DNA from: Formosa sp. Hel1_33_131 | Lineage (GTDB): Bacteria > Bacteroidota > Bacteroidia > Flavobacteriales > Flavobacteriaceae | Direction: 5' to 3' | Length of the DNA stretch: 32,000 nucleotides | NCBI RefSeq assembly: GCF_001735745.1 | Contig: NZ_CP017260.1 | Coordinates: forward strand, 1,740,001-1,772,000 | Shown here: piece after piece, positions 9,537-29,330 of the stretch | Numbering within the stretch: the stretch's first letter is position 1 | Layout: each line of letters starts with the position of its first letter | The notes under the pieces: generated by a model | Seen by the model: only the letters and a program-made list of their open reading frames with translations | Told to the model about the DNA's origin: nothing | Databases searched by the model: none | Made by a program: the position numbers and the translations under genes

Positions 9537-11117
9537 ATGGGAGGAGCAAAAGAAAGTCCAAGGCAAAAAATGATTAATTTGATGTACTTAGTATTTATAT
9601 CAATGCTAGCATTAAATATGTCTAAAGAAGTATTAAGTGCTTTTGGAATGATTTCAGAGCAAGTGACAGAAAATAATATTTCTTTACAAGAACGTATTAT
9701 TACATTTGAAACATCTATAGATAGCAATTTTGAAAAAGAAGATAAAATCTGGAAAGAAAAAAAGCTAGCGAAAGATCAGGTACATGAAATTACAACCAAT
9801 TTCCTAACCTATCTTACGAATCTTCAACAAACACCACCACAAAAAGAAGTTAAGGGATTAAAAGATCCAATTAACGATTACGAAGTGATGGACAAACCAG
9901 ACTATTTTGACAATAAATTCTTTATTGGAAGTCAAGGCGTTTTAAAACCAGAAGGTCAAGAGTTTCTAGATAAGATTAAAGCATTTAAAAGGGACTTTGT
10001 TGCGGTTGTAGATTCGCTCAAGACTGGAAAAAGTGACGAAAACTATGTCAACCTAATCAATGATGTTATAGATGTATTTGATACGGAGTCTGAAGTGATC
10101 AATAGATCAGGAGCCAAAACAACATGGATTGAGTATAACTATTTTGGGTTTCCTGAAGTAGCGACAAACACAAAGCTTACAGTAATGAAAGCCAATGTTC
10201 TTGGGTTTCAAGCAGAACTACTATCTGCGATGATTGGTGGTCAATATAAAATCAATGCCACTCTAGCCAATTTTGATGCCTATGTGGTTTCAGATAAAGC
10301 CGCTTATTTTCCCGGATCTAAATTTTCTGGTACAATAGTTTTAGGTAAAAAATCTGAAAACTTGCAACCGACAGCAATTAAAATCAACGATTCAGAGATA
10401 GATCCAATTGAATCTTTAAATTCTGAAGGAGCAATTGTACTTGATTTCCCAGTGGGGGCTGTGGGTACTAGAGAAATTGTGGGTACAATCACGTTTGAAG
10501 AAGGAGATGGGGAGCCAATTGAAATCCCTGTTTTTTCCAATTACGAAGTGATTTCTAAGCCAAACACTGCTTCTGTACAAGTAATGGGAAGAAACACATT
10601 ATTCAGAAACTTTGACAACTTGGTAAAAGTATCCGTACCAGGCGTTGCTGCAAACTTAGTAACTGCTTCGGGACCTGGAGTCACTAGCAAAGGGGATGGA
10701 TTATACACGATCAAACCTCAAAAGGGACAAGAACTCGTGTTAAAGATTTCTGCTGAACTTCCGGATGATTCTACATTCAGTTCATCTGAAACTTTTCAGA
10801 TAAGAAGAGCTCCAGTGCCAAATATTTTATTTAATGGTAAAGAAGGAGGTTCTATGTCAAGAAGCTCTATGGTAAGCGGATCAATGAGTGCCATTTATGA
10901 CCCAGCTTATGGCTTAGAATCTACAGTTAGAGTAAGATCATTCACCGTAAAAATTGGACCAAAAGCTTTTGATTGTACAGGAAATGCTTTAAGTGCAAAA
11001 GCAAAATCCGCTTTGAAAAAAGCACCAAAAGGGTTTGATGTTAGTTTTAAGAAAATTAATTATGCAGGGATCACCGCCGGTCAAAAAGAATCGGGACCCT
11101 CAATAACCATAAATTAA
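9537..11117 (+). CDS. gldM: gliding motility / T9SS protein GldM
   Basis: Conserved N-terminus PRQKMINLMYLVFISMLALNMSKEVL, a single TM helix, ~520 aa, and synteny. Confidence 0.9.
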   Translation: MGGAKESPRQKMINLMYLVFISMLALNMSKEVLSAFGMISEQVTENNISLQERIITFETSIDSNFEKEDKIWKEKKLAKDQVHEITTNFLTYLTNLQQTPPQKEVKGLKDPINDYEVMDKPDYFDNKFFIGSQGVLKPEGQEFLDKIKAFKRDFVAVVDSLKTGKSDENYVNLINDVIDVFDTESEVINRSGAKTTWIEYNYFGFPEVATNTKLTVMKANVLGFQAELLSAMIGGQYKINATLANFDAYVVSDKAAYFPGSKFSGTIVLGKKSENLQPTAIKINDSEIDPIESLNSEGAIVLDFPVGAVGTREIVGTITFEEGDGEPIEIPVFSNYEVISKPNTASVQVMGRNTLFRNFDNLVKVSVPGVAANLVTASGPGVTSKGDGLYTIKPQKGQELVLKISAELPDDSTFSSSETFQIRRAPVPNILFNGKEGGSMSRSSMVSGSMSAIYDPAYGLESTVRVRSFTVKIGPKAFDCTGNALSAKAKSALKKAPKGFDVSFKKINYAGITAGQKESGPSITIN

Positions 11118-11124
11118 ATTAAAC

Positions 11125-12342
11125 ATGAGAAAGTCTGTTTTTTTATTAGTATTACTTTTGAATCTATCTATTGGGTTTTCTCAAGCGAACCTTTTAAATA
11201 CGAAATCATCTTATGAACTTGAAACGGTTTCTAAGATAGAAGAAGGTGCGGAATTCAAGCCTTTGGATTACGCAAAAGTGAGCGATGAAGATATTGTATT
11301 TTCTTACACAACTTGGGAAGTGATGGACTTAAATGAGCGTGTCAACTTTCCGTTCCTGTATCCGATCGATATTTACTCGGTGACTCCAGACAGAAAACCA
11401 CTAATTCATTATCTAATAGATGGTGTAAGGTCTTTTGAGTTTCCAGCCTATTTTAATGACACTTTCACTGAAGAAATATCAGATGAAGAATTTGAAAATA
11501 TTCAAGTTTATAAAGTTTTAAAACCAGGTGTTGATGCCGATGGTATTACTGAAGGAAAGGAACATTTTGACATTGCAGGTTCATGGAGAGCGCATTTAGA
11601 ATCGCTTGGTTATGAATTCCCTGAAGAAGAATGGGTCACTTACGATCCTTCATCAACAGAATTCTTAGAATTAGAAGACAACCTTAAGGTAGACGAGTAC
11701 CAAAGAAAATGGAACGCAGTTGCGGCTTCTTTGATGCCTGACACCGATTTTAACTCTGCTGAATTTGAGTACAGTGATGTAAGAAAATACATCATTAAAG
11801 GAGTTTGGTATTTCGATAGAATCGCTACAGAACTTAAATTCAGACCCATCGCTATTGGACCTGTTGCATTGAGTGCTGAAGATAAATTTGCACAAACAAA
11901 TGATGACACAGGCAGTGCAGATGATTCTGGGGATGATGGTGGTTTTGGAGCTTTCTTTGATGACGAGCCAGAAGAGGAAGTTGCTGAAGAAGAAGTTGCA
12001 GAAGAAGATTCTGAAACAGATAGTTTTGCTTCAATGAGTGATGAGCCAGCAGTCGATTCTGACAAAGAATATACACCAATGTTCTGGGTGTTCTATCCAG
12101 AAGCAAGAGAAGTTCTTAGTCAGGCCTATGCCTTCAACCAAAAAAATATGTCAAAACCTTTTTCTTTTGACCGATTAATTAACTCAAGACGTTTCTCTGC
12201 GACGATATACAAAGAAGCGAATGTGTATCAAGATAGAGACATTAGAGATTATATCAGTAAAAATGCATTGATGCAACTCTTAGAGTCAGATCGTATCAAA
12301 GAAAAAATCAGAAACAAGGAACAAGACATGTGGAGTTATTAA
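11125..12342 (+). CDS. gldN: gliding motility / T9SS periplasmic ring protein GldN, with an internal acidic insert
   Basis: Signal peptide, position after gldM, and conserved C-terminal part (MFWVFYPEAR...ANVYQDRDIRDY). Confidence 0.85.
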   Translation: MRKSVFLLVLLLNLSIGFSQANLLNTKSSYELETVSKIEEGAEFKPLDYAKVSDEDIVFSYTTWEVMDLNERVNFPFLYPIDIYSVTPDRKPLIHYLIDGVRSFEFPAYFNDTFTEEISDEEFENIQVYKVLKPGVDADGITEGKEHFDIAGSWRAHLESLGYEFPEEEWVTYDPSSTEFLELEDNLKVDEYQRKWNAVAASLMPDTDFNSAEFEYSDVRKYIIKGVWYFDRIATELKFRPIAIGPVALSAEDKFAQTNDDTGSADDSGDDGGFGAFFDDEPEEEVAEEEVAEEDSETDSFASMSDEPAVDSDKEYTPMFWVFYPEAREVLSQAYAFNQKNMSKPFSFDRLINSRRFSATIYKEANVYQDRDIRDYISKNALMQLLESDRIKEKIRNKEQDMWSY

Positions 12343-16011: not shown

Positions 16012-16052
16012 GATATATTTTCAATTTTTCTTTTAGAATTACAAAAAGGTTG

Positions 16053-16060
16053 TATATTTG
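16053..16060 (+). promoter_or_regulatory. TATATTTG -7 box upstream of the truncated tRNA copy
   Basis: Matches the Bacteroidota TAnnTTTG consensus, 11 nt before tRNA position 1. Confidence 0.5.
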
Positions 16061-16069
16061 TCGTCCTAT

Positions 16070-16110
16070 ATCGCGGGATAGAGCAGTAGGTAGCTCGTCG
16101 GGCTCATAAC
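16070..16110 (+). repeat. attL: 41-nt direct repeat = 2 nt + positions 1-39 of tRNA-fMet (truncated copy)
   Basis: Identical to 27899-27939. Identity ends right after the anticodon loop, and the downstream sequence cannot complete a tRNA. Confidence 0.9.
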
Positions 16111-16181
16111 ACTCCTCACCACCCAATTTCAACTAATTTTATTAACTCATTTTCAAGTAGTTACAAATATATAATCCTACT

Positions 16182-16212
16182 TGTGTTATACGTGCTAGAC
16201 TCTTGTGTTAGA
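16182..16212 (+). repeat. two direct copies of TGTGTTA(T/G)A (candidate integrase arm-type sites), left arm
   Basis: cTTGTGTTAta at 16180-16190 and cTTGTGTTAGA at 16202-16212. The same 9-mer occurs twice near the right end. Confidence 0.55.
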
Positions 16213-16223
16213 TAAAATACGAA

Positions 16224-17459
16224 TTATCCAAAGACTTTAACCTTCATTAATTTCTCTTCTTCAACGTTTAATAAAAGTGGATTGATGTAGTGGTTTTCTA
16301 ATACCTTCATTGAAGTGTGAGATGACAATAATCTGGTATCACTTCCCATGGTATGAAATACCCAAGTAAGGTATGTTTTTCTCAGATGTTTTAGAGTAAA
16401 AGGAGTTTCGATACCTGCAGATTTTCTAAAATGGGTGAACGATCGAGAAACTTTCTCCATGATGGTATTAATTGTGTACGTATTCTCAGGATCGATGAGT
16501 TTGACATTTTTACCTTTCATTTGATCATATCCCATTTCTTTTAAAAGTTTCAATAGATCTTCATTAATAGGGGAGTACTTCTTTGGAGTATTCTTATTCC
16601 CTAATCGTTCAACCTTCAGGTTTCTAAATTGAAAGAATAGCACTCCGTTATTGCCTTGGATAATATCACTCCATTTTAGACTGAGTACTTCCTCTCTACG
16701 TCCACCAACAAGTAGAAAGAGTTTAAATGCGTTAGTCATCCAAGTAGCATACACGTAATCTCTTCTTCCATTGGTTCTTGTTTGTTGAAATGAAGACTTT
16801 GATTCTACCGCTGCTATAATTTTCTCAAACTCATCTTTGGTTAAAATCAAATTATCACCTGTAAGCACTTGTTTTCTAACACAATTTTTAAATGGATTCT
16901 TGATGTCTAACTCTTCGATTTCGATCAAGAACTTATAGAAAGAAGTTATGCTCGTTAAAACCTTGTTGAAGGTTTTGGGGTGAGGGTATTTAATCTCCAA
17001 TTGTCTGTAGAAAATAGAAACATCATTATTTCTGACATTCCCCGGTTTCATCTTCCTGAGATTGTGGTTGTTTTTCAAAGATTTAGCAAAAAGCGTACAA
17101 TACTTAATTAACTCCTTACGATGTTTATCTGATACCTCCTTTTTTAAATGTGCATATTGTGTATCTCCCTTAAGATATTGATCAAAATAAACGAGTGCTT
17201 CAGCAATATTCATTTTAGATCGATCAGGAACCGTTTCCTCCGCACCATTCTCGATTCTCCTTCTAAATTCAATACCCTCAACTACAGCATCAGCGTATAC
17301 CTTTGATTTTAGGAGTTTACTTCGGTGTTTACCAGTAACTCGATCAATAAAACACATCCGGAACACATGGTGGTCGTTGTGACGACAACCCCTGTTATTT
17401 TGTCTACATTTTTTACAGTAGATTTTGATTCCCGAATGTGAATTATTTGGTAATTTCAT
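16224..17459 (-). CDS. tyrosine site-specific integrase
   Basis: Catalytic-type motifs GGRREEV (R), LKHLRKTY (HxxR) and SHTSMKVLENHY (H...Y), and location at the island edge. Confidence 0.9.
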   Translation of the reverse strand: MKLPNNSHSGIKIYCKKCRQNNRGCRHNDHHVFRMCFIDRVTGKHRSKLLKSKVYADAVVEGIEFRRRIENGAEETVPDRSKMNIAEALVYFDQYLKGDTQYAHLKKEVSDKHRKELIKYCTLFAKSLKNNHNLRKMKPGNVRNNDVSIFYRQLEIKYPHPKTFNKVLTSITSFYKFLIEIEELDIKNPFKNCVRKQVLTGDNLILTKDEFEKIIAAVESKSSFQQTRTNGRRDYVYATWMTNAFKLFLLVGGRREEVLSLKWSDIIQGNNGVLFFQFRNLKVERLGNKNTPKKYSPINEDLLKLLKEMGYDQMKGKNVKLIDPENTYTINTIMEKVSRSFTHFRKSAGIETPFTLKHLRKTYLTWVFHTMGSDTRLLSSHTSMKVLENHYINPLLLNVEEEKLMKVKVFG

Positions 17460-17830
17460 TATTGATAAAGTTCTTGAAAGATGGATTCATGCTCCTTATT
17501 AGAGCTAATGTCCAGATTAAAATGGTAAGGCACAAATCCAGTGTCAAATTCCAAACAATCATGGTAGAGGAGTTGATGTAGTTCTTTCTGATCACCATAG
17601 ATTGATTCTAAACGTGGTTTCCATGAATTTGGATATCTTTTTACTAAATCTTCAGCAAAAGGTCTCCAGACCTCTTGTTCGACCTGTATCCGAAAAACAT
17701 ATTCCCTTCCATCTTTGTGGATGTGGATGTGATGATCCCTAAGCCACTTTTTGATCGAACGGTTGTCCTTTCGATTTATATATTGACCAACTTGATGTAG
17801 GTTTATGCGATTAGTAGAGTTATTATTCAT
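17459..17830 (-). CDS. small HTH protein, excisionase/recombination-directionality-like
   Basis: The N-terminal INLHQVGQYINRKDNRSIKKWLRDHHIHIHKDGREYVF resembles Xis/AlpA-type winged HTH. The stop overlaps the integrase ATG (TAATG). Confidence 0.45.
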   Translation of the reverse strand: MNNNSTNRINLHQVGQYINRKDNRSIKKWLRDHHIHIHKDGREYVFRIQVEQEVWRPFAEDLVKRYPNSWKPRLESIYGDQKELHQLLYHDCLEFDTGFVPYHFNLDISSNKEHESIFQELYQ

Positions 17831-17858
17831 TGCCTTAAAATTATTTTGATGATATCGT

Positions 17859-19409
17859 TTATTTATTTGAATTAATTGACTCTACTATTTTTGCTGCTGC
17901 TTCATCCAATGATGGAAAAGGATCCTCCAATTCTTTGAATTTGATTCCAGGTGTTAATCCCGTTTGTTTACTTATAGAATCAGTTAACAGATATTGTACC
18001 TCATACATCTTCTCTTTTTGACACAATACGCTATCGTGAATGGTGATGTATGGGATATTATTTTTACTCAGTTCCAAACAACCATGCCTCAAAAATAAAT
18101 AGGACTCACATCGTTGGATTAGATATGAAAATGGACTTTTTAAATGATTTACATTGGACATGAATTGAATGAGTTTACTTACATCCTTAAATTTTCTTTC
18201 CATGTGTTTAATGAGTTCTACATTGACCCTCCTATTTTTGTCTGAAAAATTAATGTAGAGTTGAAATTGATCTTTTACCTTCTCACGGGTCATCCCAATA
18301 TCATCACCAATGGTTTTATAGATGTCATCTTTAAAGCTTAATGCCCGATATTTTTGGATTCCTCTCTTTCTCCAAAACCTGCCACACATATATGATATGA
18401 ATGTATCCAGTATAGGATATTTTATATTAGTTAATACATTACCTTGATATGTAATATATTCTATGTAGTTATTATTAATAACATTAGACTCTATAACCAT
18501 ATGTCCAGTAAATTTTTCTAAAAAATCTTGATACTCCATAGAATCACATGAATACTTAAAGGATTTGTAATATTGGGGGAAAATTGAATAGAGATTATAT
18601 CCACCTTTGGTCTCAGTGAAAAATTTTTCTGTGAGAATGGTGGCAAGGGTAAATGGATGTGATGTAGTTATATCTACTTCAACCATCTGTTTTCCATTTG
18701 TCCTTAAAAAATATCGTAATTCCCTCTTAATAGAAGTGAATACCGAATTGACTCTATGATTACTTTTAGATACAGAATAATTAAATTCCTCTTTTTCGAT
18801 GTTCTCAATTACTTTATGTGATTTTTTGAAGTATTTCTTTACCTGTGTTTTATTTTCCTTTACCACCTTTGACAATACCCTTTTTTTCAATTCTTTCAGG
18901 TAATTTTCAGCAGCTGCTGCATCTATGGTAATTTGAGATTGATCCATAGCCTCTTTGATGTGAATGTATCTGTCATCAAAACATTTCATGTCCAATTCCC
19001 ATTCATTTTTAAGTTTTTCTTTTCGAGTGTCATACTTACCGTCAATTTCAACTTCAACAAAATCATTCCCCTCAAGCACCCATTGATTGAGTTTATATCC
19101 AGTGTGTTTAACACCAGGGATAGTTAAGTTATCTGATAGGACAATGGGACCATTTTCGGTCACATTTGAGTCCATTAGGATGGTTTTAACCTCATTAAAT
19201 CTATTACGAGTCATTCTGTTTACAACTTTACTTGAAAGAGGTTTAAAACCCCTCAAATATTGATAGTCTTTTGAATTGTATATTGGGGGTGTTATACACG
19301 ATAAGACATAATAAGCAGCGTCACAAATGGATTTCTTGCGCTGTGATCTTCCCGTTACGTATTGACTAAAATCCACTTGATTGATCGACATTGGAATATT
19401 AACTTTCAT
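17859..19409 (-). CDS. hypothetical 516-aa protein; possible divergent family-A-like polymerase/replication protein
   Basis: Long ORF, co-directional and tightly spaced within the int module. Motifs VEVDITTSHPFTLA, REKVKDQFQLYINF and ITIHDSV occur in the order of palm motifs A/B/C. Confidence 0.55.
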   Translation of the reverse strand: MKVNIPMSINQVDFSQYVTGRSQRKKSICDAAYYVLSCITPPIYNSKDYQYLRGFKPLSSKVVNRMTRNRFNEVKTILMDSNVTENGPIVLSDNLTIPGVKHTGYKLNQWVLEGNDFVEVEIDGKYDTRKEKLKNEWELDMKCFDDRYIHIKEAMDQSQITIDAAAAENYLKELKKRVLSKVVKENKTQVKKYFKKSHKVIENIEKEEFNYSVSKSNHRVNSVFTSIKRELRYFLRTNGKQMVEVDITTSHPFTLATILTEKFFTETKGGYNLYSIFPQYYKSFKYSCDSMEYQDFLEKFTGHMVIESNVINNNYIEYITYQGNVLTNIKYPILDTFISYMCGRFWRKRGIQKYRALSFKDDIYKTIGDDIGMTREKVKDQFQLYINFSDKNRRVNVELIKHMERKFKDVSKLIQFMSNVNHLKSPFSYLIQRCESYLFLRHGCLELSKNNIPYITIHDSVLCQKEKMYEVQYLLTDSISKQTGLTPGIKFKELEDPFPSLDEAAAKIVESINSNK

Positions 19410-19421
19410 ATTCTTGTGGTG

Positions 19422-20954
19422 TTATGCCGCAGCGGTTAATCGATCCTCACTCTCAATGATGAGTGCTTGTTGTAATTCAGATTCAGTTCTTTCTCCTAAT
19501 ACCATATTCATTCTCTTATTACAGAATTCAACTGATACAGGGTCGATGTCAACTCCAATTGCGTTACATCCGTTACGGGCAAAAACCTCAAGTCCCTGAC
19601 CCGCACCACAAAAAATATCAATACAAGTCATTCCTGGCAAAGTGTATGATTCTACAAATTGTTGATATACATCCATAGGTGCTGGTGCATCGTGGGTGAA
19701 ATCAGGGTCGTATTTTTTGTATTCGGAATCGTTAACTACAGGAGTAATAATGACATTTGAGACAACAGTTTCTTCTGCTTGAACAAAAAATCTATTTGTT
19801 CCATCTTTTGCTTTGTGACTTTTCTTAACCATTTTTTTCCCTTCCTTTGTCTTTTTCATTTTGGGATTGAAATTCACTTTCGCACCTTTCATTTTACACA
19901 CCAATATCGTCTCATCCACTGGTCTGAAAAAGTCTTTTAGTATTACAGGAGTTGAGTTGCTTTTGATCCAAGGACTTTTTCCAATGATTTCAACTCCTGA
20001 TTCAAGTAACATCATTTCGTAACGGGTAATTACACTTTTATAACCACCCGAATATGACTCCCCAATTATAATAACGATAACTCCATTTTCATCCATAATG
20101 TCGATTAGTGCTTCAATGAATTTTTTACTGTTATCAATGTACTCTTCTACTGTAGCTTCCTGACCATATTTCATTTCACCTTGGTTTCGATATTTTTTCA
20201 TCGTCCTATACGTTGGGGAGAACATTGCGATATGAGGTCGATACTTTTTAAGATTTGATAAGTCCACGCTACTTTGATTAAACACCTTAAACCAAACATC
20301 TTTATTTACTGCTTCGGCTTTGATTTTCTCTTTAGTACGCTTTTTGTCGTCTTTATCTCTGCTACTCATCATTAATTTGTATGCTGCATCAATTTTGTAC
20401 GTGCCGTTATCAATACCATCAATTAAACCAAGGCTATTATCGGTTTTTTCGTAATCATACACAGACATTAACTTGCGTAATGTTCTACTTGAAAAATTAA
20501 GTCCTGAAAGCATACAAGCAATTTCAAATCTGTTCTTACCTGCGGTCCCAAATTCGTTTTCATTATCCAATTTATCCATTCCAAGCAAGTCATTTCTTTT
20601 GCCTTGGTTAGTGCCTATTAGCCCTAAGATATGTTCAATGTTGAAACATTTTTCAGATAGGTGCACCTTCGTCTTTAAATTATAAGTAATACGAGTATTT
20701 AATATTTCTGAATCAGGAATGTCAAGTACAATACAATCGAGAGATTCAAAATTTCCAGCTTCAATAGCGGAATAATAGCGATGACCGCCGTCAATAATGT
20801 AATAGATACCATCCCTCAATACAACAATCACCGCTGTCTTTTTAGGAAAGTGTTTCATTGAGAATGTAATGAATGGGTTGGGTTGGTATTTTTTGATTTT
20901 CAATACCAACGGGTGAATTCGTATTTCACTTAATTTTACTCTTGTTGTTTCCAT
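19422..20954 (-). CDS. ParB-like nuclease domain fused to a beta-class N4/N6 DNA methyltransferase
   Basis: N-terminal ParB/Srx motif YYIIDGGHRYYSA; motif IV-like MFSPTY; C-terminal HDAPAP...CIDIFCGAGQG...GVDID (AdoMet motif I after motif IV = beta permutation). Confidence 0.85.
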   Translation of the reverse strand: METTRVKLSEIRIHPLVLKIKKYQPNPFITFSMKHFPKKTAVIVVLRDGIYYIIDGGHRYYSAIEAGNFESLDCIVLDIPDSEILNTRITYNLKTKVHLSEKCFNIEHILGLIGTNQGKRNDLLGMDKLDNENEFGTAGKNRFEIACMLSGLNFSSRTLRKLMSVYDYEKTDNSLGLIDGIDNGTYKIDAAYKLMMSSRDKDDKKRTKEKIKAEAVNKDVWFKVFNQSSVDLSNLKKYRPHIAMFSPTYRTMKKYRNQGEMKYGQEATVEEYIDNSKKFIEALIDIMDENGVIVIIIGESYSGGYKSVITRYEMMLLESGVEIIGKSPWIKSNSTPVILKDFFRPVDETILVCKMKGAKVNFNPKMKKTKEGKKMVKKSHKAKDGTNRFFVQAEETVVSNVIITPVVNDSEYKKYDPDFTHDAPAPMDVYQQFVESYTLPGMTCIDIFCGAGQGLEVFARNGCNAIGVDIDPVSVEFCNKRMNMVLGERTESELQQALIIESEDRLTAAA

Positions 20955-20994
20955 TTTTTATTTATTTTAAGTTAAAAAGTTATGTCTTTTTTGT

Positions 20995-21017
20995 TTGGAT
21001 AAGAATATTTTATCCAA
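20995..21017. promoter_or_regulatory. palindromic operator-like site TTGGATAA-N7-TTATCCAA upstream of the ParB-MTase operon
   Basis: Perfect 8-bp inverted repeat, 41 bp upstream of the 20954 start codon. Confidence 0.45.
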
Positions 21018-21028
21018 TAATTTTTGTT

Positions 21029-21054
21029 AAAAAAAATGGAGTTTTACGTCCATT
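21029..21054 (-). terminator. weak intrinsic terminator after the 185-aa gene
   Basis: Minus strand reads aatgga-cgtaaaac-tccatt followed by eight T. Confidence 0.4.
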
Positions 21055-21077
21055 TTGTATCTATAAAGAACTTTTAA

Positions 21078-21635
21078 TTAAAAGTTAACTATCACTCTAT
21101 TCCCATCCAAATCAATTCCTGTTTCACCATCAGCTCCAAGATATTCGATACAGTACTGGTCCCACATCAAATAAAGGATATGTTTTTCTATTTCTTCTAA
21201 CTGATGTAATGGTATATTGCCATTGACTAATACCTTATTCTCAGGTCCAATATTTCTTGAAAACCAACGCACTTTTTTTCCAAAGTGGTCAATCCAAAAT
21301 GCTCTCATTACAATATACTTTACACCAGATTTCTTATTTTTATTTAGTGTCTTATAGAGTCTTACATTGAAAATCAATAATAGTTTTTCAATTCGAATTT
21401 TATATTGGTCAATTAAATTATACAAATTGATTGGTGCAAGTTTATTGCCATCTTTATCAGTAATATCTTCTGTGGTAGACAATAAGTTTTTGAATTCTGC
21501 CTTAACCTCCTCGAACTCCAAGTTAACCTCGTCCCAAAAATCACTATTTTGTTTGTTCTTTGGTTTATGATCATCGATCCAATCCTCAAACTTGAATATA
21601 TAATTCCAATTTTTATTGTAAAAGTCGTTTTTCAT
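21078..21635 (-). CDS. hypothetical protein, C-terminal AP2/Arm-like DNA-binding-type region
   Basis: The ORF is open to 21701, but a canonical promoter lies inside that extension, so MKNDFYNK at 21635 is the likely start. The C-terminal YIVMRAFWIDHFGKKVRWFS resembles three-stranded-sheet DNA-binding domains. Confidence 0.55.
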   Translation of the reverse strand: MKNDFYNKNWNYIFKFEDWIDDHKPKNKQNSDFWDEVNLEFEEVKAEFKNLLSTTEDITDKDGNKLAPINLYNLIDQYKIRIEKLLLIFNVRLYKTLNKNKKSGVKYIVMRAFWIDHFGKKVRWFSRNIGPENKVLVNGNIPLHQLEEIEKHILYLMWDQYCIEYLGADGETGIDLDGNRVIVNF

Positions 21636-21658
21636 TTGTGTCTTTATATTTTGTGGCA

Positions 21659-21689
21659 CAAATATAGACACAATTATTTTATGCACAAA
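21659..21689 (-). promoter_or_regulatory. Bacteroidota-type promoter TTTG-N19-TATATTTG
   Basis: On the minus strand, TTTG is at 21689-21686 and TATATTTG at 21666-21659, 24 nt before the ATG at 21635. It is embedded in the imperfect palindrome 21638-21671. Confidence 0.6.
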
Positions 21690-21829
21690 ATTTTTTTTCA
21701 ACTTTTTGCAATTTCGGCAAGAAGTAAATTATTTACGGTGGTAAAACTCAACTACACCCCCCTACAAAAAATAATTTATGACTCCATGTCTTTTTCAGTT
21801 GTATGACATATTTATAGGGAAACACTTGT

Positions 21830-22006
21830 ATGAAAGATAAAAAATCTAAAAGGGTAATCGTTCGGATAACTGAGAATCAGTTCAAAAATTTGATGGATTG
21901 TGTGATCAACGAAAATAAAAGTAGATATACAGCTTCTGATCTAATCAGAGAATCTGTAATCGAAAAATTAAATAAAATAAAAGAAGATGCTAACAGGAAG
22001 AAATAA
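21830..22006 (+). CDS. ribbon-helix-helix (CopG/MobC-like) small DNA-binding protein, 58 aa
   Basis: Not in the ORF track (<60 aa). MKDKKSKRVIVRITENQFKNLMDCVINENKSRYTASDLIRESVIEKLNKIKEDANRKK shows a beta-strand/helix/helix pattern typical of RHH. Confidence 0.6.
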   Translation: MKDKKSKRVIVRITENQFKNLMDCVINENKSRYTASDLIRESVIEKLNKIKEDANRKK

Positions 22007-22184
22007 TTTAGATTATGAATATTTCAATCGATATTTAAAGAATTGTGGATATAACGACATAAGCGAAATGGAGTTATTAAATGATTTTTTTAAAGAACGA
22101 TTAAATATTCCTCAAGAACATGAATTAGACCCTGAAAAGGTAATTTTCTTGAATGAATTGGTAAGTTTTTGTCGTAAAAAATAA
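21987..22184 (+). CDS. hypothetical 65-aa protein, overlaps the RHH gene by 20 nt
   Basis: The ORF start lies inside the RHH 3' end. No recognisable motif. Confidence 0.4.
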   Translation: MLTGRNNLDYEYFNRYLKNCGYNDISEMELLNDFFKERLNIPQEHELDPEKVIFLNELVSFCRKK

Positions 22185-22334
22185 TCAAGTTAAAAACCTT
22201 AAAATACCAACTGGCGCAGAAAACAATTCTCGATTTCATCTGTTGAATCCCTGATTTTGATCAATGTATTACATTAAATTATTATCGGCACGATTGGTTG
22301 GAATATTGAGCCATTTGTGAAATAAGGACCGTTT

Positions 22335-22784
22335 TTATTTATTTTTCAAATACAGTTTTGTAAGTGTTTCCCCCATTGTGTTACATAGAATTTCCTGTGG
22401 GTGGTGCGCCAATGAGAATTGTTCCAATTGATCCTGATAGAGTTTAGATTTAGTTTCTGATGTAATTAGGTAGTAATGGAAATATTCATGGATAACGGTA
22501 TTGATGAGTTCTCGTCGTATTAGATTGTTATCCCTGTATATTGTAATTGTATTGTTATAGAAACAATACTCTCCCGCAAGATGAGATTTACCTTCAACTA
22601 AAGTCAGTAGTGGTTTTTGTTTACGTATTGGATAAAGATGAAGGCACCAGCTTAATACATCGTCTGCCAAATGCAATTGACAGTCTTCACCATCAGGTTT
22701 TATAAATCTAATTATTTTACAAATCAGATTCAATAAGAACAACACTCCAACTATAATGAAATACCATTTAAAAAAAGTATCCAC
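22335..22784 (-). CDS. membrane-anchored HExxH (zincin-like, SprT/DUF45-like) protein
   Basis: N-terminal TM helix WYFIIVGVLFLLNLICKII and motif VIHEYFHYYL. The start overlaps the recombinase stop by 1 nt. Confidence 0.6.
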   Translation of the reverse strand: MDTFFKWYFIIVGVLFLLNLICKIIRFIKPDGEDCQLHLADDVLSWCLHLYPIRKQKPLLTLVEGKSHLAGEYCFYNNTITIYRDNNLIRRELINTVIHEYFHYYLITSETKSKLYQDQLEQFSLAHHPQEILCNTMGETLTKLYLKNK

Positions 22785-23425
22785 TACAGAATCCTTTTTA
22801 CTTTCATTACAGTATTGGTGGACTTATTTGTTATTGCACTAATATTTCGGATTGACAGCCCTCTATTTATTAACCGAACAACATCCGAGTGACGATTTAA
22901 TACTTTTTCATCACTATCAATATCTCCTTTTTTTCTTCCTACACTTTTCTTTCCATTTTTCTTGATATGATTGCGGTAACCTGACTGTAATCGAGATAGC
23001 GTCATCTTACTTTCCATATTTGCAACGCTGAACAATATTTGGACCATAAACATTGATAAACTATTTGGTGTCTTATCCTCGTTGAGCGTCTCAAGATTAA
23101 AATTCTTTATATAAAGTCCGACTTTTAAATCATGTAGGAGTTGTATGTTTTGAAGGGACTGAAGTACCGACCTTCCTATTCGACTTAACTCCCAAACTAA
23201 TATTTTATCAATTGATCCCTCTTTCGCCAGTTCCAACATCTTGGAAAAAACTGGTCTTTGATCGTTCTTTTTGAATCCACTTACCTTTTCTTCAAAAACT
23301 TCAACTACCTCATAGTTCATTCTCTTAGCATATTGTTGCAGTTCCTTTGTTTGTCTCTCTGTGTCCTGTCTTTCTGACTCTGAACTAACTCTTGAGTAAA
23401 TTACAGTCTTAATCATATGTATCAA
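22784..23425 (-). CDS. small serine recombinase (resolvase/invertase family)
   Basis: N-terminal VIYSRVSSESERQDTERQ (catalytic Ser context), WELSRIGRS, and a C-terminal HTH (RGLSIRNISAITNKSTNTV). The true start may be the MIKTVIY Met at 23416. Confidence 0.9.
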   Translation of the reverse strand: MIHMIKTVIYSRVSSESERQDTERQTKELQQYAKRMNYEVVEVFEEKVSGFKKNDQRPVFSKMLELAKEGSIDKILVWELSRIGRSVLQSLQNIQLLHDLKVGLYIKNFNLETLNEDKTPNSLSMFMVQILFSVANMESKMTLSRLQSGYRNHIKKNGKKSVGRKKGDIDSDEKVLNRHSDVVRLINRGLSIRNISAITNKSTNTVMKVKRIL

Positions 23426-23530
23426 TTTAATCCTTTGGGTTTCTGTGATGCTATGATACAGCGGATTAATGGGGTACCGGAATAATAAATGCTAAATTTT
23501 TGCTACAATAATTGTTTTGAGACACTTTTT

Positions 23531-23652
23531 GTGTGCGGATAATATTTCGTGAAGGATCACCGTCACGGGTTGATCATAATCGTTGTTATCCGCACACCCA
23601 AACGGTACTTGATCTACTCGACGGTCCACAGGTGGGATTATTATCCACACAC
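23531..23652. repeat. three copies of the 12-mer GTGTG(C/T)GGATAA (one forward, two inverted)
   Basis: gtgtgcggataa 23531-23542; ttatccgcacac 23586-23597; ttatccacacac 23641-23652. The cluster begins 105 bp upstream of the serine recombinase ORF start. Confidence 0.8.
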
Positions 23653-23795
23653 CTACTATACTACCCCATGGCGGTCCCCCCTGCAGGACTTCCTGCAGCC
23701 AAGCCCCCTCTTAAAAATGGGTATTTCGACTTTGCCACAGGGGGCTCAGTACTTCGAATGAAATTTTTTTCCAAAAAAATGGGTTAGGGGGGGTT
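23531..23795. other. GC-rich, hairpin-dense non-coding element (candidate structured RNA, recombination site cluster or oriT-like region)
   Basis: Visibly higher G+C than the flanks, C- and G-runs, several perfect inverted repeats, and no credible ORF. Confidence 0.5.
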
Positions 23796-23840
23796 ACTTC
23801 ATAAATAAAATTTTCAGATTTTTTTCAGAAAATTGACCTT

Positions 23841-24041
23841 TTATACTTTAAGTAGTTTCTCCATAATTTTGACCATCGCGAAGGTGTCTAACTTACAGTA
23901 CTCCAGGAGTTGTCTCCTTGTTTCTTCTGCATCACCCTGAAATGTTCCATTTACCATAGAAAGAAAAGTATTGGATGCAGTGTTTATACTATTATAGTGT
24001 AGCCGTTTTTTAATTAAAAGACTTCGTTCAAACACCCTCAA
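23841..24041 (-). pseudogene. 3'-terminal remnant of a DUF2779-like (exonuclease-fold) gene
   Basis: The end reads ...RRQLLEYCKLDTFAMVKIMEKLLKV, matching the C-terminal LLxYCxLDTxAMV signature of that family as I remember it. Only ~45-65 codons remain. Confidence 0.55.
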
Positions 24042-24253
24042 AGATTAAGAGAAGATCTCCCAGTGATTATAAGACCAGTCCAAAATAGTATTGAAAAAAA
24101 GTTTAATGCATCTTTATAGTCTATTTCATTATATTTGAATTAAAATAAACGAGAACAAAGATCCTGTTATCCGGAAACACAGATCTATAAACAGGCCGTT
24201 TGTTCTACATATAACGAGTTGTGCATAATGCAGAAACCGAATTAAGAAAAAAC

Positions 24254-24286
24254 TTTGCACATTGCATTGAAAATTATCTATCTTTG
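24254..24286 (+). promoter_or_regulatory. candidate promoter TTTG-N21-TATCTTTG for the DUF6660/TBDR pair
   Basis: TTTG at 24254-24257 and TATCTTTG at 24279-24286. The ATG at 24292 would give an almost leaderless transcript. Confidence 0.4.
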
Positions 24287-24291
24287 TGATA

Positions 24292-24609
24292 ATGAAATTT
24301 ACTACTATCATATTATCATTATTAATACTTGCTTTGTCAATGAAACCTTGTTCTGACGGAAATAATGCCGAAGACAAACACCAAGACGAAATAAGTGCTA
24401 ATCATAATCACCAAAATGATAGTGATGATACTTGTCCTGTAACTTGTATTTGCAATTGTTGCGGAACATCTATTACTTATCAAGTAATTAAAACTCTTGA
24501 TTTGGGATTAAAAAACCGAATTTCTACAGAAATATTATTTGTTTATCAATCAACATACAGATTTGATTTTCACTCAAATATTTGGCAACCGCCACAATTG
24601 ATTAGTTAA
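24292..24609 (+). CDS. DUF6660-like small secreted Cys/His-rich protein
   Basis: Signal-like N-terminus, LSMKPCSDG, His-rich spacer, DDTCPVTCICNCCG, and C-terminal IWQPPQL. This pattern recurs upstream of TonB receptors in Bacteroidota (from memory). An alternative GTG start lies at 24286. Confidence 0.6.
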   Translation: MKFTTIILSLLILALSMKPCSDGNNAEDKHQDEISANHNHQNDSDDTCPVTCICNCCGTSITYQVIKTLDLGLKNRISTEILFVYQSTYRFDFHSNIWQPPQLIS

Positions 24610-24660
24610 ATTTTAGACTCAAAGTCAAAAAAATTAAATTAATCAATTTTTACATTTTCA

Positions 24661-26844
24661 ATGAATAAATATATATTGAGCATAATGCTCACAGTTATTA
24701 CCTGCTTTTCAATAAAAGCACAAACATCTTATTTAAAAATAAAAGTAATTTCAGAATCCGAAAACGAGCCTTTATTTGGCGCAACAGTTTATTTTGAGGA
24801 GTTAGAAAAAGGAGCAGTAACCGACTTTGATGGAATTGTAACTTTTACCAAAATTCCAAACGGAAAACATATCGCAATAATTTCTTATTTAGGTTTTGAA
24901 ACTCTCAAAACAACTATTCAAGCACCAATAAATTCAACTTTAATTTTCAAATTAAAAAATAGTGGAAACCAATTAGACGAAATTGTGTTACAATCTTCAC
25001 GAAGCACAAGAACAGTTAAGAAAATTCCCACAAGAATAGAGTTTATTGGCACAGAAGAATTGGGAGAAAAAGCAATTATGAACCCAACAAACATTTCGAT
25101 GGTTCTTCGTGAAAGTACAGGAATACAAATGCAACAAACTTCTTTAAGTAGTGGAAATACAAATATCAGAATTCAAGGACTTGACGGACGCTATACGCAA
25201 CTTTTAAGAGATGGATTTCCACTTTATGGCGGTTTTTCAAGTGGCTTGAGCATATTACAAATTCCACCATTAGATTTACAACAATTTGAAATTATTAAAG
25301 GAAGTTCATCAACACTTTATGGTGGTGGAGCAATTGCAGGTTTAATAAATATGGTTTCAAAAACACCAGATGAAGAACCAGCTTTGGATATTATGCTAAC
25401 ACAAACCCAAGCATTAGGAAGTACAGCAAATGTATTCTACAGCAAACGAAATGAGAAATTTGGTGTTTCACTTTACGCTTCTGGTCATTCTCAAAAAGTT
25501 TACGACCCAGAAAATGATGGTTTTAGTAATTTACCAAAAACTACATCAATTTCATTCAACCCAAAATTCTTTTATTATCCATCAGAAAAAACAACGTTTT
25601 GGTTTGGTTTAAATGGAACTTACGATGACAGAATTGGTGGAGATGTAACAAAAATTGAAAGCGGAGAAAATGGAATTCATCAATATACAGAAGAAAACAT
25701 ATCAAAAAGAGTAAGCAGTCAAGCAGTTTATAAAACGCAAATAGATTCAATAAGCTCATTAAATATAAAAAATAGTATTTCATTTTTCGATAGAAATCTT
25801 ACTATTCCAGGTTTTAGTTTTGATGGTAAACAATTCAATACGTTTACAGAAGTTACCTATAAAAAAACTTCTTTAAAAACAGATTGGATTTTTGGAGCAA
25901 ACTTATACACTTCAAACTTTGATGAAAATAATAATGCAACTTTACAACGTGACCAAACAGATATAACTTATGGAATGTTTGCAAACAGCATTCTTGATAT
26001 TTCAGATAATTGGATTTTAGAAACTGGATTGCGAGCAGATTACAATACTGATTTCGGTATTTTTCCACTTCCAAAAATTTCTTTGCTTTATAAAAATGAT
26101 AGCGGATTTTCATGCAGAATTGGTGGTGGTTTAGGCTACAAAATTCCAGATATTTTTACAGAAGAGGCTGAATTTATCAATTTTGAAAATGTAATTGGCA
26201 TTGATAAATCTTCATTAAAAGCAGAACGTTCTTATGGTGTAAATCTTGATTTCAATTATCAAACACGTTTATTTGAAACCATTGGTTTTTCCATTAATCA
26301 ACTTTTTTATGTTACAGCGATTAATAACGGATTGTTATTAAATAGTACAAATAACGGTTTGTTTGCATTTGAAAATGCAACTGACGAAATTTTAAGCAAA
26401 GGAGCAGAAACAAATATTAAGTTTACTTATAAAGATTTTAGATGGTTTTTAAATTATGCACTTATAGACACGAAACTGAACTATTTGGCAGGAAATCCAC
26501 AAAAACCATTGACAGCAAAACATAACGCAGGAAGTGTATTAATGTACGAATCTGATAAATGGCGAATTGGTTACGAGACATTTTATACAGGAAAGCAGTT
26601 TTTATCAAACGGAACTGAAACGACAGATTTTGTCACAATGGGATTATTGTTAATGCGAAACTTTAAATTTGGTAGTGCTTTTGTGAATTTTGAAAATTTC
26701 ACAGACAGACGACAAAGTAGGTTTTCGCCTTTGGTTTTACCACCACACGAAAATCCAGAATTTCCAGAAATTTATGCACCAACAGACGGCTTTATTTTTA
26801 GCGTAGGAATTATTATTAAACCATTTGGTAACGAAGAACATTAA
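24661..26844 (+). CDS. TonB-dependent outer-membrane receptor with N-terminal carboxypeptidase-regulatory-like domain
   Basis: Signal peptide, CarbopepD_reg-like beta sandwich (GATVYFEELEKGAVTDFDGIVTF), plug (IEFIG..., IRIQGLDGRYTQLLRDGFP), a long beta-barrel, and a terminal aromatic-rich strand. Confidence 0.9.
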   Translation: MNKYILSIMLTVITCFSIKAQTSYLKIKVISESENEPLFGATVYFEELEKGAVTDFDGIVTFTKIPNGKHIAIISYLGFETLKTTIQAPINSTLIFKLKNSGNQLDEIVLQSSRSTRTVKKIPTRIEFIGTEELGEKAIMNPTNISMVLRESTGIQMQQTSLSSGNTNIRIQGLDGRYTQLLRDGFPLYGGFSSGLSILQIPPLDLQQFEIIKGSSSTLYGGGAIAGLINMVSKTPDEEPALDIMLTQTQALGSTANVFYSKRNEKFGVSLYASGHSQKVYDPENDGFSNLPKTTSISFNPKFFYYPSEKTTFWFGLNGTYDDRIGGDVTKIESGENGIHQYTEENISKRVSSQAVYKTQIDSISSLNIKNSISFFDRNLTIPGFSFDGKQFNTFTEVTYKKTSLKTDWIFGANLYTSNFDENNNATLQRDQTDITYGMFANSILDISDNWILETGLRADYNTDFGIFPLPKISLLYKNDSGFSCRIGGGLGYKIPDIFTEEAEFINFENVIGIDKSSLKAERSYGVNLDFNYQTRLFETIGFSINQLFYVTAINNGLLLNSTNNGLFAFENATDEILSKGAETNIKFTYKDFRWFLNYALIDTKLNYLAGNPQKPLTAKHNAGSVLMYESDKWRIGYETFYTGKQFLSNGTETTDFVTMGLLLMRNFKFGSAFVNFENFTDRRQSRFSPLVLPPHENPEFPEIYAPTDGFIFSVGIIIKPFGNEEH

Positions 26845-26849
26845 AAATT

Positions 26850-26990
26850 ATGCAAAAAATAGAACAATTTTTAGACTCAAAAAATATTAGAGTTACAGCA
26901 ATGCGATTATTGATTTATAAGTTTCTTGCCGAAAAACAAGTTGCTGTAACATTAAGCGATATAGAAAATGCTTTCGAAAAAGCAGTCTAA
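26850..26990 (+). pseudogene. 5' fragment (46 codons) of a Fur-family metalloregulator gene
   Basis: MQKIEQFLDSKNIRVTAMRLLIYKFLAEKQVAVTLSDIENAFEKA then V-stop. This matches the N-terminal winged-helix start of Fur/Zur-like repressors but lacks the rest of the DNA-binding and metal-binding domains. Confidence 0.65.
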
Positions 26991-27156
26991 CTTACACTCG
27001 TTACTTAAGTATTTTAAAGGAAGGAGAATTGTATATCGTCCAAGTTAAGTGGATCGTCAAAAGAAGAAATTGAGCTGCAACTTCTGTCAATAGGGGGAGG
27101 GGAAATCAAAATTCAAACATCTCAACCTCCTTATTTTAATTTCTTAATTTTGACTC

Positions 27157-27693
27157 ATGTCAAGCACTAATTCAAAAGATAAAGACAAACCTTCAAAAAG
27201 AATTGAATACCGAGGGAAAAATGTCCGAGTTTCAAGAACAGGAGGTGTTTCTGCAACGAAAACATTTAAGGGTGATGGAATTGGTGCTACCATAAACACC
27301 AAACACGGACTTCGTCTTCACAAACGATTATTTAAGGGTGCAAGAATGGGTTTCCAAAACGGTAACTTTCAGTTTATTGGGAGGTATAAAAGTGGCCCAT
27401 TCAATTTCAATGTCTCAAAAAACGGATTAAGTACATCCTTAAAAAATAAACGAGGTTCCTATAACATCTTCAAACCCAATTATTCCAGTTTCAAATTAGG
27501 TGGTGTTCAAGTAAGAGGAAAAAACGCTGCTACTTTTCAAATGATCTACATGGTGATCATTCTCTTTGTTAATTTCATTAAAGTATTTTGGCACATTTTC
27601 ATCTCTTTTTTGTGGTTTGGTTTTTTATCCATTAAATGGATTGTAGACTTTACAATTGGATTTTTCAAAGGTTTTAAAGAAATTGATTCTTAA
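27157..27693 (+). CDS. DUF4236-like protein with C-terminal transmembrane region
   Basis: Repeated basic beta-hairpin-like segments (VRVSRTGGVSATK, NVSKNGLSTSLKNKRGSYN) and two C-terminal hydrophobic helices. Confidence 0.5.
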   Translation: MSSTNSKDKDKPSKRIEYRGKNVRVSRTGGVSATKTFKGDGIGATINTKHGLRLHKRLFKGARMGFQNGNFQFIGRYKSGPFNFNVSKNGLSTSLKNKRGSYNIFKPNYSSFKLGGVQVRGKNAATFQMIYMVIILFVNFIKVFWHIFISFLWFGFLSIKWIVDFTIGFFKGFKEIDS

Positions 27694-27898: not shown

Positions 27899-27973
<75 letters not shown>

Positions 27974-28004
27974 CAAAAGGCTAAAAAGCCATTAAGTCAA
28001 TGAT

Positions 28005-28040
28005 AATGCGGTTTCTGATTACTTGGAAACCGCATTTTTT
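28005..28040 (+). terminator. intrinsic terminator downstream of the tRNA
   Basis: 11-bp stem aatgcggtttc / gaaaccgcatt with a 10-nt loop, then tttttt. It occupies the upstream extension of the integrase ORF. Confidence 0.75.
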
Positions 28041-29330
28041 ATGCCTAGATTAGTCGATATTTTAAAAACGGTACACGGTACGGTACACGATTTTGACAAA
28101 GTGAAACCAAAGAGAAAATATTCAGAACCTAAGATTTACACTGGAGGTGTAGATGTTTCTAAATGGAATAAATTATCTAAAGAGGAACAAAAAAAAGCCT
28201 TGTCAAAACAATGGTACCTATATTATTCTTATCGTAATCCGGAAACAGGTAAGCTAGAAAGACAGGATAATATAAAGGATGGTAATTACTACAAGACTAA
28301 AGAGGAACGTTTAGAATTTTTAGAAACACTTAAAAGGAATTTATCTCGATTATTAAAACAAGGTTACAATCCTTTTGATGATACCAAAGATGTTGAAGAA
28401 ATAATGTCAGTTGAGAATGCTATTGAATTTGCCTTAGATATTAAAAGAAAGACTACTGCAGAAAATTCATATATCAGATTTAAATCTAGAATTAATCGAT
28501 TTAAGACATATTTATTTGAAAATGGATATTCGCATCGGTTTATGACCTCAGTCGATAAAAAAATAGTGATGAAGTACCTGAACCACGTTTTAGATACTTC
28601 CAGTCCAAGAAATAGAAATAATACTCGTACAGATATAAGTTCATTGTTTCAAGTGTTAGAAGATAACGATATCATTCCTTTAAATTTTGTTTCTAAAATC
28701 AATGTTTTAAAAGCACCACCAAAAAGGAATAAAACTTATTCGAATGATAAACTTGAACTCATCTATGAGTATTTAGCAGAAAAGGATCCTCAATTACTTC
28801 TTTTCATTAAGTTCGTTTCATATAATTTCTTGCGCCCTGTTGAAGTGTGTAGGCTACGAGTTGGTGATATTAATATAAAAGAAAAAACACTTACAGTAAA
28901 GGCTAAAAACAAACCATTAAAGCAAAAAATAATTCCTAAAATATTACTCGATCAGTTGCCTGACTTATCTGAATATAGTAAAGATGATTTTATTTTTTCT
29001 TATAGCCGTTCTCCTGGTAAATGGGATGCTACTGATGATAATAGAAGAGATCATTTTACTAAACGTTTCAAATCCTTAAAAGACTTTTTTTCAAAGAAGT
29101 CCAAAACAGATGATAAGTACTTTAAGCTTGGGATTGAGTATAATATTTATTCGTTTAGGCACACTTTTATAACCAAGCTATACCGTGAGATACGAAAAGA
29201 AATGACACCTTTTGAAACGAAAAGTAAGTTAATGTTAATTACTGGCCATAGCACTATGACAGCTCTTGAAAAGTATTTGCGTGATATTGATGCCGAATTA
29301 CCTGAAGATTACTCTAATTTGATTAAATAA
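28041..29330 (+). CDS. tyrosine site-specific integrase (Bacteroidota phage-type)
   Basis: N-terminal arm-binding-like WYLYYSYRNPETGKL; LRPVEVCRLRVGDI (R), YSFRHTFITKLY (RH) and GHSTMTALEKYL (H...Y). The start is set at the MPRLV Met because 28023-28040 is the terminator. Confidence 0.9.
   Translation: MPRLVDILKTVHGTVHDFDKVKPKRKYSEPKIYTGGVDVSKWNKLSKEEQKKALSKQWYLYYSYRNPETGKLERQDNIKDGNYYKTKEERLEFLETLKRNLSRLLKQGYNPFDDTKDVEEIMSVENAIEFALDIKRKTTAENSYIRFKSRINRFKTYLFENGYSHRFMTSVDKKIVMKYLNHVLDTSSPRNRNNTRTDISSLFQVLEDNDIIPLNFVSKINVLKAPPKRNKTYSNDKLELIYEYLAEKDPQLLLFIKFVSYNFLRPVEVCRLRVGDINIKEKTLTVKAKNKPLKQKIIPKILLDQLPDLSEYSKDDFIFSYSRSPGKWDATDDNRRDHFTKRFKSLKDFFSKKSKTDDKYFKLGIEYNIYSFRHTFITKLYREIRKEMTPFETKSKLMLITGHSTMTALEKYLRDIDAELPEDYSNLIK

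Follow-up and report, generated by a model that had tools for sequence, protein, structure and literature searches.

A TV-Pol-type minimal family-A polymerase encoded in the backbone of an integrative island of Formosa sp. Hel1_33_131

The window analysed here, a stretch of 32,000 nt from contig NZ_CP017260.1 of Formosa sp. Hel1_33_131, contains an uninterrupted open reading frame (ORF) on the minus strand (17859-19409) encoding a protein of 516 amino acids (aa), which lies within an integrative island of ~11.8 kb. Judged from its architecture, motifs, taxon and genomic context, and with a match to a named member that is not significant, the protein fits the Transposon-Virus polymerase (TV-Pol) family of minimal family-A polymerases. 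We favour, with some confidence, the reading that it is a TV-Pol-type primase-polymerase that replicates the island after excision. An initial annotation of this ORF had described an 'orphan' protein of no overall family with three polymerase motifs, possibly something new. Indeed, the ORF and the motif peptides (residues 218-256, 375-388 and 454-463) were found as reported, but homologues are plentiful and the protein does not represent a new class, as its features fit a family known by computer analysis since 2008 (PMC2579912). Its sequence is identical to that of WP_197493455.1, listed for Formosa sp. Hel1_33_131 as a 'hypothetical protein', and the identical protein is present on 107 contigs.

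Conservation, homology and predicted fold of the polymerase

Comparison with two gene copies of ~87% identity gave an overall dN/dS of 0.16-0.17 for the polymerase gene, with the strongest purifying selection of the whole protein in the C-terminal palm (0.07-0.08) and a value somewhat above the rest of the protein (0.27) over residues 271-345, which contain an insertion in the fingers. Given this low dN/dS and the existence of homologues, the ORF is a real gene. A word-indexed search returned 75 homologues, none named and none with a Pfam domain, which comprise a close set from marine Flavobacteriaceae (55-92% identity) and a distant set (20-30% identity); a second word-index search using the family profile gained little. 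An exhaustive search covering 1.84 billion cluster representatives (clusters at 50% identity) yielded 1,165 proteins at E<=1e-3, 198 of them at E<=1e-10, most of which are 450-580 aa in length. All 1,165 matching clusters are unannotated. Likewise, searches of Pfam, PHROGs, NCBIfam and PADLOC gave no meaningful match for the polymerase, Pfam matches were absent for 53 relatives and for longer relatives of 590-820 aa, and the PDB sequences, searched by phmmer and with two profiles, returned noise only. The TV-Pol family is absent from the domain databases searched here. With more than 1,000 clusters at 50% identity, this family is abundant in marine Bacteroidota islands, yet its members are named only 'hypothetical'.

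Seven columns (R219, R232, D246, K379, E435, H458 and D459) are invariant among 53 diverse members. In a larger set of 146 non-redundant relatives, R219, D246, Y364 and K379 are retained in every sequence, R232, E435, H458 and D459 in 145, Q432 in 142, R375 in 121 and D362 in 85, a pattern that matches the one expected of an active site. On these alignments the motifs are not a product of chance, and the predicted active site is intact, strongly conserved and under selection. D246 and D459, the two aspartates singled out in the initial annotation, are both present and are the predicted metal-binding residues of an RRM-like palm. A polymerase fold that has lost catalysis and is retained for DNA binding or scaffolding would find a parallel in some PolA-SSB 'Pol' proteins that retain little beyond a possibly vestigial RRM core. 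However, such a fate is barely credible for a protein whose catalytic residues are invariant across 146 diverse members and whose palm is the part under the strongest purifying selection.

When the family profile was aligned with E. coli Pol I, T7 RNA polymerase (RNAP) and T7 DNA polymerase (DNAP), each as a single sequence, no match was significant, although the alignments were still in register at motif C (Pol I and T7 RNAP) or at motif B (T7 DNAP). Significance was reached only with a Pol I-type (PolA) profile of 11 polymerase domains, drawn from E. coli, T7 and nine diverse phages, for which hhalign with the 146-member family profile returned a Prob of 92.3% and P = 5.5e-7 over 193 columns; no unrelated family was found in the profile searches. 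On this profile evidence the protein is a homologue of family-A (Pol I/T7-like) polymerases. In the alignment, R219 is paired with Klenow R682 (TGRLSS), D246 with D705 (motif A), the D-D-I-Y364 stretch with D732-I-H734, R375xxxK379 with R754xxxK758 (motif B), LIQRCES (Q432) with the Q849 region and H458-D459 with H881-D882 (motif C). Motifs B and C had thus been assigned correctly from the outset. The motif A proposal was right for D246, but the arginine of HRVNSVF (R219) corresponds to R682 and not to R668 of RIHTSF.

Structural modelling supports this assignment. The AlphaFold2 model, built from 25 sequences (mean pLDDT 80, pTM 0.70), has the predicted layout of the thumb, palm and fingers of family-A polymerases behind an N-terminal accessory domain; all coordinates of these features refer to the minus strand. 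In the predicted thumb (18780-19037, residues 125-210), which consists of long helices according to DSSP of the model, the antiparallel helices 164-181 and 184-205 are connected by a 2-residue turn and modelled with a pLDDT of 86-93. The region that follows (18621-18779), delimited from the model, the profile alignment and conservation, holds a predicted beta-hairpin (212-221, with strands 212-213 and 220-221) bearing R219, then R232 and the palm strand 240-247, which ends in D246 within the sequence VEVDITTSHPF (family consensus DIxxSQPY). The fingers are predicted as a helical insertion (250-425) after this first palm strand and include the RxxxK helix, their motifs D361-D362-I363-Y364 and R375xxxK379 being placed at 18246-18329 (residues 361-388) by profile alignment and conservation. 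Comparison of the model with the relatives revealed an additional insertion in the fingers (18384-18539, residues 291-342), rich in N, Y and I, which is modelled with confidence below 50, confined to the close marine clade and missing in distant relatives. The remainder of the predicted palm (alpha426-449, beta454-457, beta460-464, alpha465-483 and beta489-493) includes the helix with LIQRCES (Q432, E435) and the motif C hairpin YITIHDSV, both located at 18018-18134 from the model and the profile alignment, with H458-D459 in the hairpin turn.

A Foldseek search of this model against PDB gave family-A polymerases, either DNA polymerases or the mitochondrial T7-like RNA polymerase, as all of the top 50 matches (probabilities 0.96-1.00), in line with the palm that had been suspected from the motifs. 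These include Bst Pol I (E = 1.6e-4), Klenow (E = 3.6e-4), the apicoplast polymerase, Pol theta and mitochondrial RNA polymerase (POLRMT); TM-scores are low (~0.3) because the relative domain positions differ. Among predicted viral structures, the best matches were ~400-aa proteins of uncultured marine phages labelled 'putative DNA polymerase I' (7.5e-16 and 1.4e-11), and polymerase-helicase fusions of virophages matched as well, such as the Zamilon replication protein (6e-3) and a protein of Qinghai Lake virophage (8.8e-3). The N-terminal domain (19038-19409, residues 1-124), in which P6 and L78 are nearly invariant among relatives, was modelled separately as an alpha/beta domain with a pLDDT of 87 and a pTM of 0.80. 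Its fold search against PDB did not reach significance, the best E being 0.35. The weak hits consist almost entirely of DNA-binding proteins of the winged-helix type (PerR, MarR, PadR, ArsR, ScpB and plasmid centromere binders), and no exonuclease resemblance was present among the fold matches of these 124 residues. A role of the domain in DNA binding is at most a reasonable guess.

Compared with bacterial DNA polymerase I (Klenow and Bst large fragments), the protein shares the thumb-palm-fingers fold and the order of the motifs A, B and C, but identity in structural alignments is ~10%, and the canonical Pol I model (DNA_pol_A, PF00476) matches neither the query nor 53 relatives. The query also differs in having no 3'-5' or 5'-3' exonuclease domain, and its fingers stretch from motif B to motif C is much shorter (80 vs 124 residues). 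The site aligned to the steric-gate residue E710 is Gln in 126 and His in 17 of the 146 relatives and never Glu, while motif C reads HDS, as in T7 RNA polymerase (IHDSF), instead of HDE. Because of the steric-gate site and this form of motif C, sugar specificity cannot be read from the sequence.

The same two features could be taken to favour a small single-subunit RNA polymerase that would transcribe the island genes or make RNA primers only, the more so as motif C is locally in register with that of T7 RNAP. T7-like RNA polymerases are proteins of ~880 aa with an N-terminal promoter-binding domain and a specificity loop. Both elements are absent from the 516-aa protein, its hhalign match to T7 RNAP is confined to motif C and not significant (P 0.04-0.07), and DNA polymerases lead both the structural and the profile matches. 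In addition, the sole tested relative prefers deoxynucleotides (dNTPs) (PMC7581432). An RNA polymerase is consequently improbable, in our assessment.

TV-Pol membership and the proposed role in island replication

The TV-Pol family was defined by Iyer, Abhiman & Aravind in 2008 for proteins of 400-600 aa, which occur in mobile elements of Bacteroidetes and other bacteria, in a cyanophage and in Sputnik; the Bacteroidetes sources include a Flavobacteriales bacterium, Polaribacter dokdonensis, Psychroflexus torquis and Cytophaga hutchinsonii (PMC2579912). The hallmarks given are a thumb formed by a coiled coil, a hairpin whose Arg is conserved without exception, two Asp residues in an RRM palm and fingers with an Asp and RxxxK, without any fusion to nucleases, and a subset has an extra N-terminal domain and adjoins a resolvase, a lambda-type integrase or a transposase (PMC2579912). 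With 516 aa, and with relatives mostly of 450-580 aa, the query falls within this size range, and is thus not far smaller than known family-A enzymes, as had initially been thought. No nuclease domain was found in it; its modelled thumb is an antiparallel bi-helical coiled coil, its hairpin bears the invariant R219 (146/146), and its fingers carry RxxxK as well as D362 (85/146), followed by the invariant Y364. It possesses an extra conserved N-terminal domain, and its island encodes both an integrase (16224-17459) and a resolvase (22784-23425), with the same pattern at related loci. On the other hand, the query N-domain is predicted to be alpha/beta with a winged-helix flavour, unlike TV-PolN, which was described as all-helical, and the island has no D5-like helicase.

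Two groups of published relatives are informative in this respect. The V13-type TV-Pols of Sputnik and Zamilon, which are joined to a D5 helicase, match in their predicted structures, with E 2e-4 to 9e-3 and an rmsd of 8-9 A over ~370-390 columns, but those proteins are 780-840 aa in length with a C-terminal D5-like helicase that is absent from the query. CcPol-MP of SCCmec is a dNTP-using primase-polymerase by experiment (PMC7581432), and CcPol was counted among the TV-Pols in the 2008 paper (PMC2579912). Similar to the query, CcPol has an A-family core and is encoded on an integrative element beside site-specific recombinases (PMC7581432, PMC10061031). It differs in keeping three exonuclease-domain helices, which place it near the 'CHEAP' PolAs and closer to true Pol I, in being without the N-terminal TV-Pol domain, and in its need for the OB-fold partner MP and its cooperation with the Cch2 helicase, no such partner being recognisable in the query island.

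We infer priming and replication by the query protein from two sources, namely the argument from gene context made by Iyer et al., in which TV-Pols take the place of primase-polymerases beside helicases (PMC2579912), and the analogy with CcPol-MP; the same holds for the nucleotide and the template that it would use and for an excised circle as the molecule that it would replicate. In the mechanism that we propose, the polymerase would be co-transcribed with the ParB/methyltransferase, a probable excisionase and the integrase. The recombinase would excise the island as a circle, on which the polymerase would begin DNA synthesis through de novo priming, extension or both, and the N-terminal domain may provide DNA or origin binding. 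The island would thereby replicate on its own before transfer or re-integration.

Several observations weigh against this proposal. CcPol is the only TV-Pol that has been characterised according to Bebel et al., and it primes only with a separate single-stranded DNA (ssDNA)-binding partner and works with a helicase (PMC7581432). In library searches, no helicase, primase or ssDNA-binding protein (SSB) was recognised among the island proteins. Zero matches to the polymerase were obtained by tblastn in the phage and plasmid collections, and no relative appeared in a scan of viral contigs. Furthermore, MAP_030 of Ma-LMM01, our guess at the phage TV-Pol, matches the family only marginally (P 0.01-0.02), and the family profile aligned to this single sequence was not significant. 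One alignment of MAP_030 nevertheless runs colinearly between the N-domain and motif A, and the ORF, which adjoins transposases of the IS605 type, shows plausible motifs (YDV, K and QHD); the search for its homologues gave 6 sequences, too few for a strong profile.

The protein might instead be a primer-dependent DNA polymerase only, serving gap filling, strand-displacement or repair synthesis, for example in completing transferred ssDNA or filling recombination junctions, with priming left to the host. CcPol alone just extends primers (PMC7581432), no helicase, SSB or zinc-finger primase element was found in the island, and the family-A fold belongs mainly to enzymes that extend primers. However, the conserved N-domain, with P6 and L78 nearly invariant, could give template binding as MP does for CcPol, and a polymerase without a primase would gain the island little unless it can initiate. 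We therefore consider a purely primer-dependent enzyme unlikely, albeit the most serious competitor of the primase-polymerase. A bolder version of the primase-polymerase reading, which we put forward as speculation, is that the N-domain-bearing bacterial TV-Pols are self-sufficient initiating polymerases that use their own N-domain instead of an SSB partner and do without the steric-gate Glu. Such enzymes would start chains de novo, possibly with ribonucleotides, so that an island of 8-12 kb could be copied without an element-encoded helicase or primase. If so, the 516-aa protein would be the smallest natural A-family primase-polymerase and would serve as a living model of the ancestor that has been proposed for both Pol I and the T7-like RNA polymerases.

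Correct annotation of this family would mark a replication module in many islands, including those with defence genes and those with nutrient-uptake cargo. As the sequence of WP_197493455.1 is available for a named strain, its gene may offer a practical way to test a 'true' TV-Pol biochemically for the first time, which would bear on initiation by a Pol I-type active site and on the minimum size of such an enzyme.

Operon structure and related islands

The polymerase gene comes second in a tightly packed operon on the minus strand with the order ParB/methyltransferase, polymerase, p123 and integrase, confirming that it resides in an integrase module. The first gene (19422-20954), encoding a fusion of a ParB-N-like domain with an N6/N4 DNA methyltransferase (MTase), ends 12 nt upstream of the polymerase. 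Genes of this ParB/MTase type adjoin the polymerase at related loci L002-L008, L010 and L011 and lie two genes away at L013. The ParB/MTase is ~26% identical in most related elements, diverging much faster than the polymerase, and a cognate restriction enzyme for it is absent from the island. Downstream, p123, an ORF of 123 aa (17459-17830, minus strand), starts 28 nt after the polymerase, and its stop overlaps the start of the last operon gene, a tyrosine integrase (16224-17459, minus strand) that was identified in library searches and lies beside the left repeat of the island. The sole family hint for p123 is a weak Exc match. As it co-varies with the integrase rather than with the polymerase and is missing from variants with a serine recombinase, p123 is probably an excisionase-like factor. 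For the same reason p123 was rejected as an MP-like SSB partner of the polymerase.

The polymerase was found at 16 loci in species-representative genomes, nearly all of them metagenome-assembled genomes (MAGs) of Bacteroidota. In the Flavobacteriaceae MAG O_MB241 (L011) the island is 98% nucleotide-identical over 16050-27407, whereas the ABC-F protein adjoining the island is just 65% identical; this difference suggests a recent transfer of the island between different genera. Apparent frameshifts in several of the L011 genes are probably due to errors in the assembly. A single Urechidicola croceus MAG carries, on two contigs (L002 and L010), different polymerase copies with 85% and 87% protein identity to the query, and the module of integrase and p123 is present in only one of these two elements.

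Other loci differ in the way they integrate. L003-L007 and L009 keep the polymerase, the ParB/methylase and p149, a small protein of the island, but integrase and p123 are replaced by a recombinase beside tRNA-Asn; in L003-L007 a resolvase-type recombinase gene and then the tRNA-Asn gene come after the polymerase. At L004, for example, a 520-aa serine recombinase (9717-11279) takes the place of integrase and p123, and the 3' end of its gene overlaps the tRNA-Asn gene (11242-11318). A freshwater Flavobacterium element (L013) has resolvase, polymerase, p207 and ParB/methylase in an altered order, and the polymerase genes of distant relatives (~20-25% identity) stand directly after integrase and HTH_17 genes, with a PIF1-type helicase directly after the polymerase at L020 and L021. 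The integration module is swapped between elements, and the polymerase, which is kept while the recombinases change, is a backbone gene of integrative islands with interchangeable recombination modules.

The islands of the distant relatives L020-L024 carry cargo that includes type ISP restriction, Multi_ubiq/ThiF, DISARM-like DrmE/MZB/helicase, DndD-like, AAA_23, HicA and Fic genes. Together with the methyltransferase as a constant neighbour, the type ISP, DISARM-like, Dnd-like and ubiquitin-like (Multi_ubiq/ThiF) genes might suggest that the polymerase itself belongs to an anti-phage defence or conflict system, making, for instance, a signalling or decoy nucleic acid. We rate this no higher than the RNA polymerase, and if anything slightly lower: the protein has no PADLOC match, the island in the window carries a TonB-dependent receptor rather than defence genes, and the polymerase stays by the integrase/excisionase core while the cargo varies, which is the pattern expected of a backbone gene.

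Three further minus-strand genes belong to the shared part of the island. The product of the first, p207 (207 aa, 21078-21701), is 51% identical to the protein beside the polymerase in the freshwater Flavobacterium element. The second, p149 (149 aa, 22335-22784), contains an HExxH motif and gave a weak SprT-like match; an N-terminal hydrophobic segment and the motif in the form HEYFH were observed, and its identity is 62-84% in most of the close related elements and weaker in L002 and L014. The third is a small serine recombinase of the resolvase family (22784-23425), recognised in a library search and from the related loci. Two small plus-strand ORFs lie between p207 and the p149 side of the island.

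Island boundaries, cargo and the tRNA-Met site

The island of ~11.8 kb is bounded by two exact direct repeats of 41 bp on the plus strand. The left copy (16070-16110) matches the 5' portion of tRNA-Met as far as the anticodon loop, and the right copy (27899-27939) lies inside the intact tRNA-Met gene (27901-27974). A promoter-like sequence upstream of the repeat is also partly duplicated, and the repeat implies that the island supplies a new 5' half of tRNA-Met. Most islands target the 3' end of a tRNA gene, and use of the 5' end is unusual.

Similarity to related elements begins at ~16050, and the shared backbone extends over ~16050-23980, while the right part of the island consists of cargo, namely a DUF6660 protein, the TonB-dependent receptor and a DUF4236-like protein. 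The position at ~24.0-24.2 kb, where similarity to related elements stops, was considered as the right end and rejected, as it is the junction of backbone and cargo and the repeat at 27899-27939 marks the end. A 66-aa ORF with no family match (23841-24041, minus strand) may be a gene fragment that marks this junction; the stretch 23761-23981 at the backbone edge retains nucleotide similarity in L005, L008 and L010.

Within the AT-rich island, a GC-rich non-coding segment of ~320 nt (23480-23800) holds a 14-bp perfect inverted repeat, GTGTGCGGATAATA / TGTTATCCGCACAC, at about 23531-23598, as well as a CCTGCAGG hairpin, and has a fold z-score of ~-2.5 on both strands. No Rfam family matches this segment and it is not conserved in L005 or L010; its possible functions include an origin, a res site and a non-coding RNA.

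No 3'-tRNA repeat was found anywhere in the 32,000-nt window. To the right of the island, a second, unrelated tyrosine integrase gene (28023-29330, plus strand) begins 49 nt beyond the tRNA-Met gene, with a gene for a helix-turn-helix (HTH) protein (29333-30508, plus strand) after it. Given this second integrase so close to its end, it seems that tRNA-Met acts as a double integration hot spot and that another island lies to its right.

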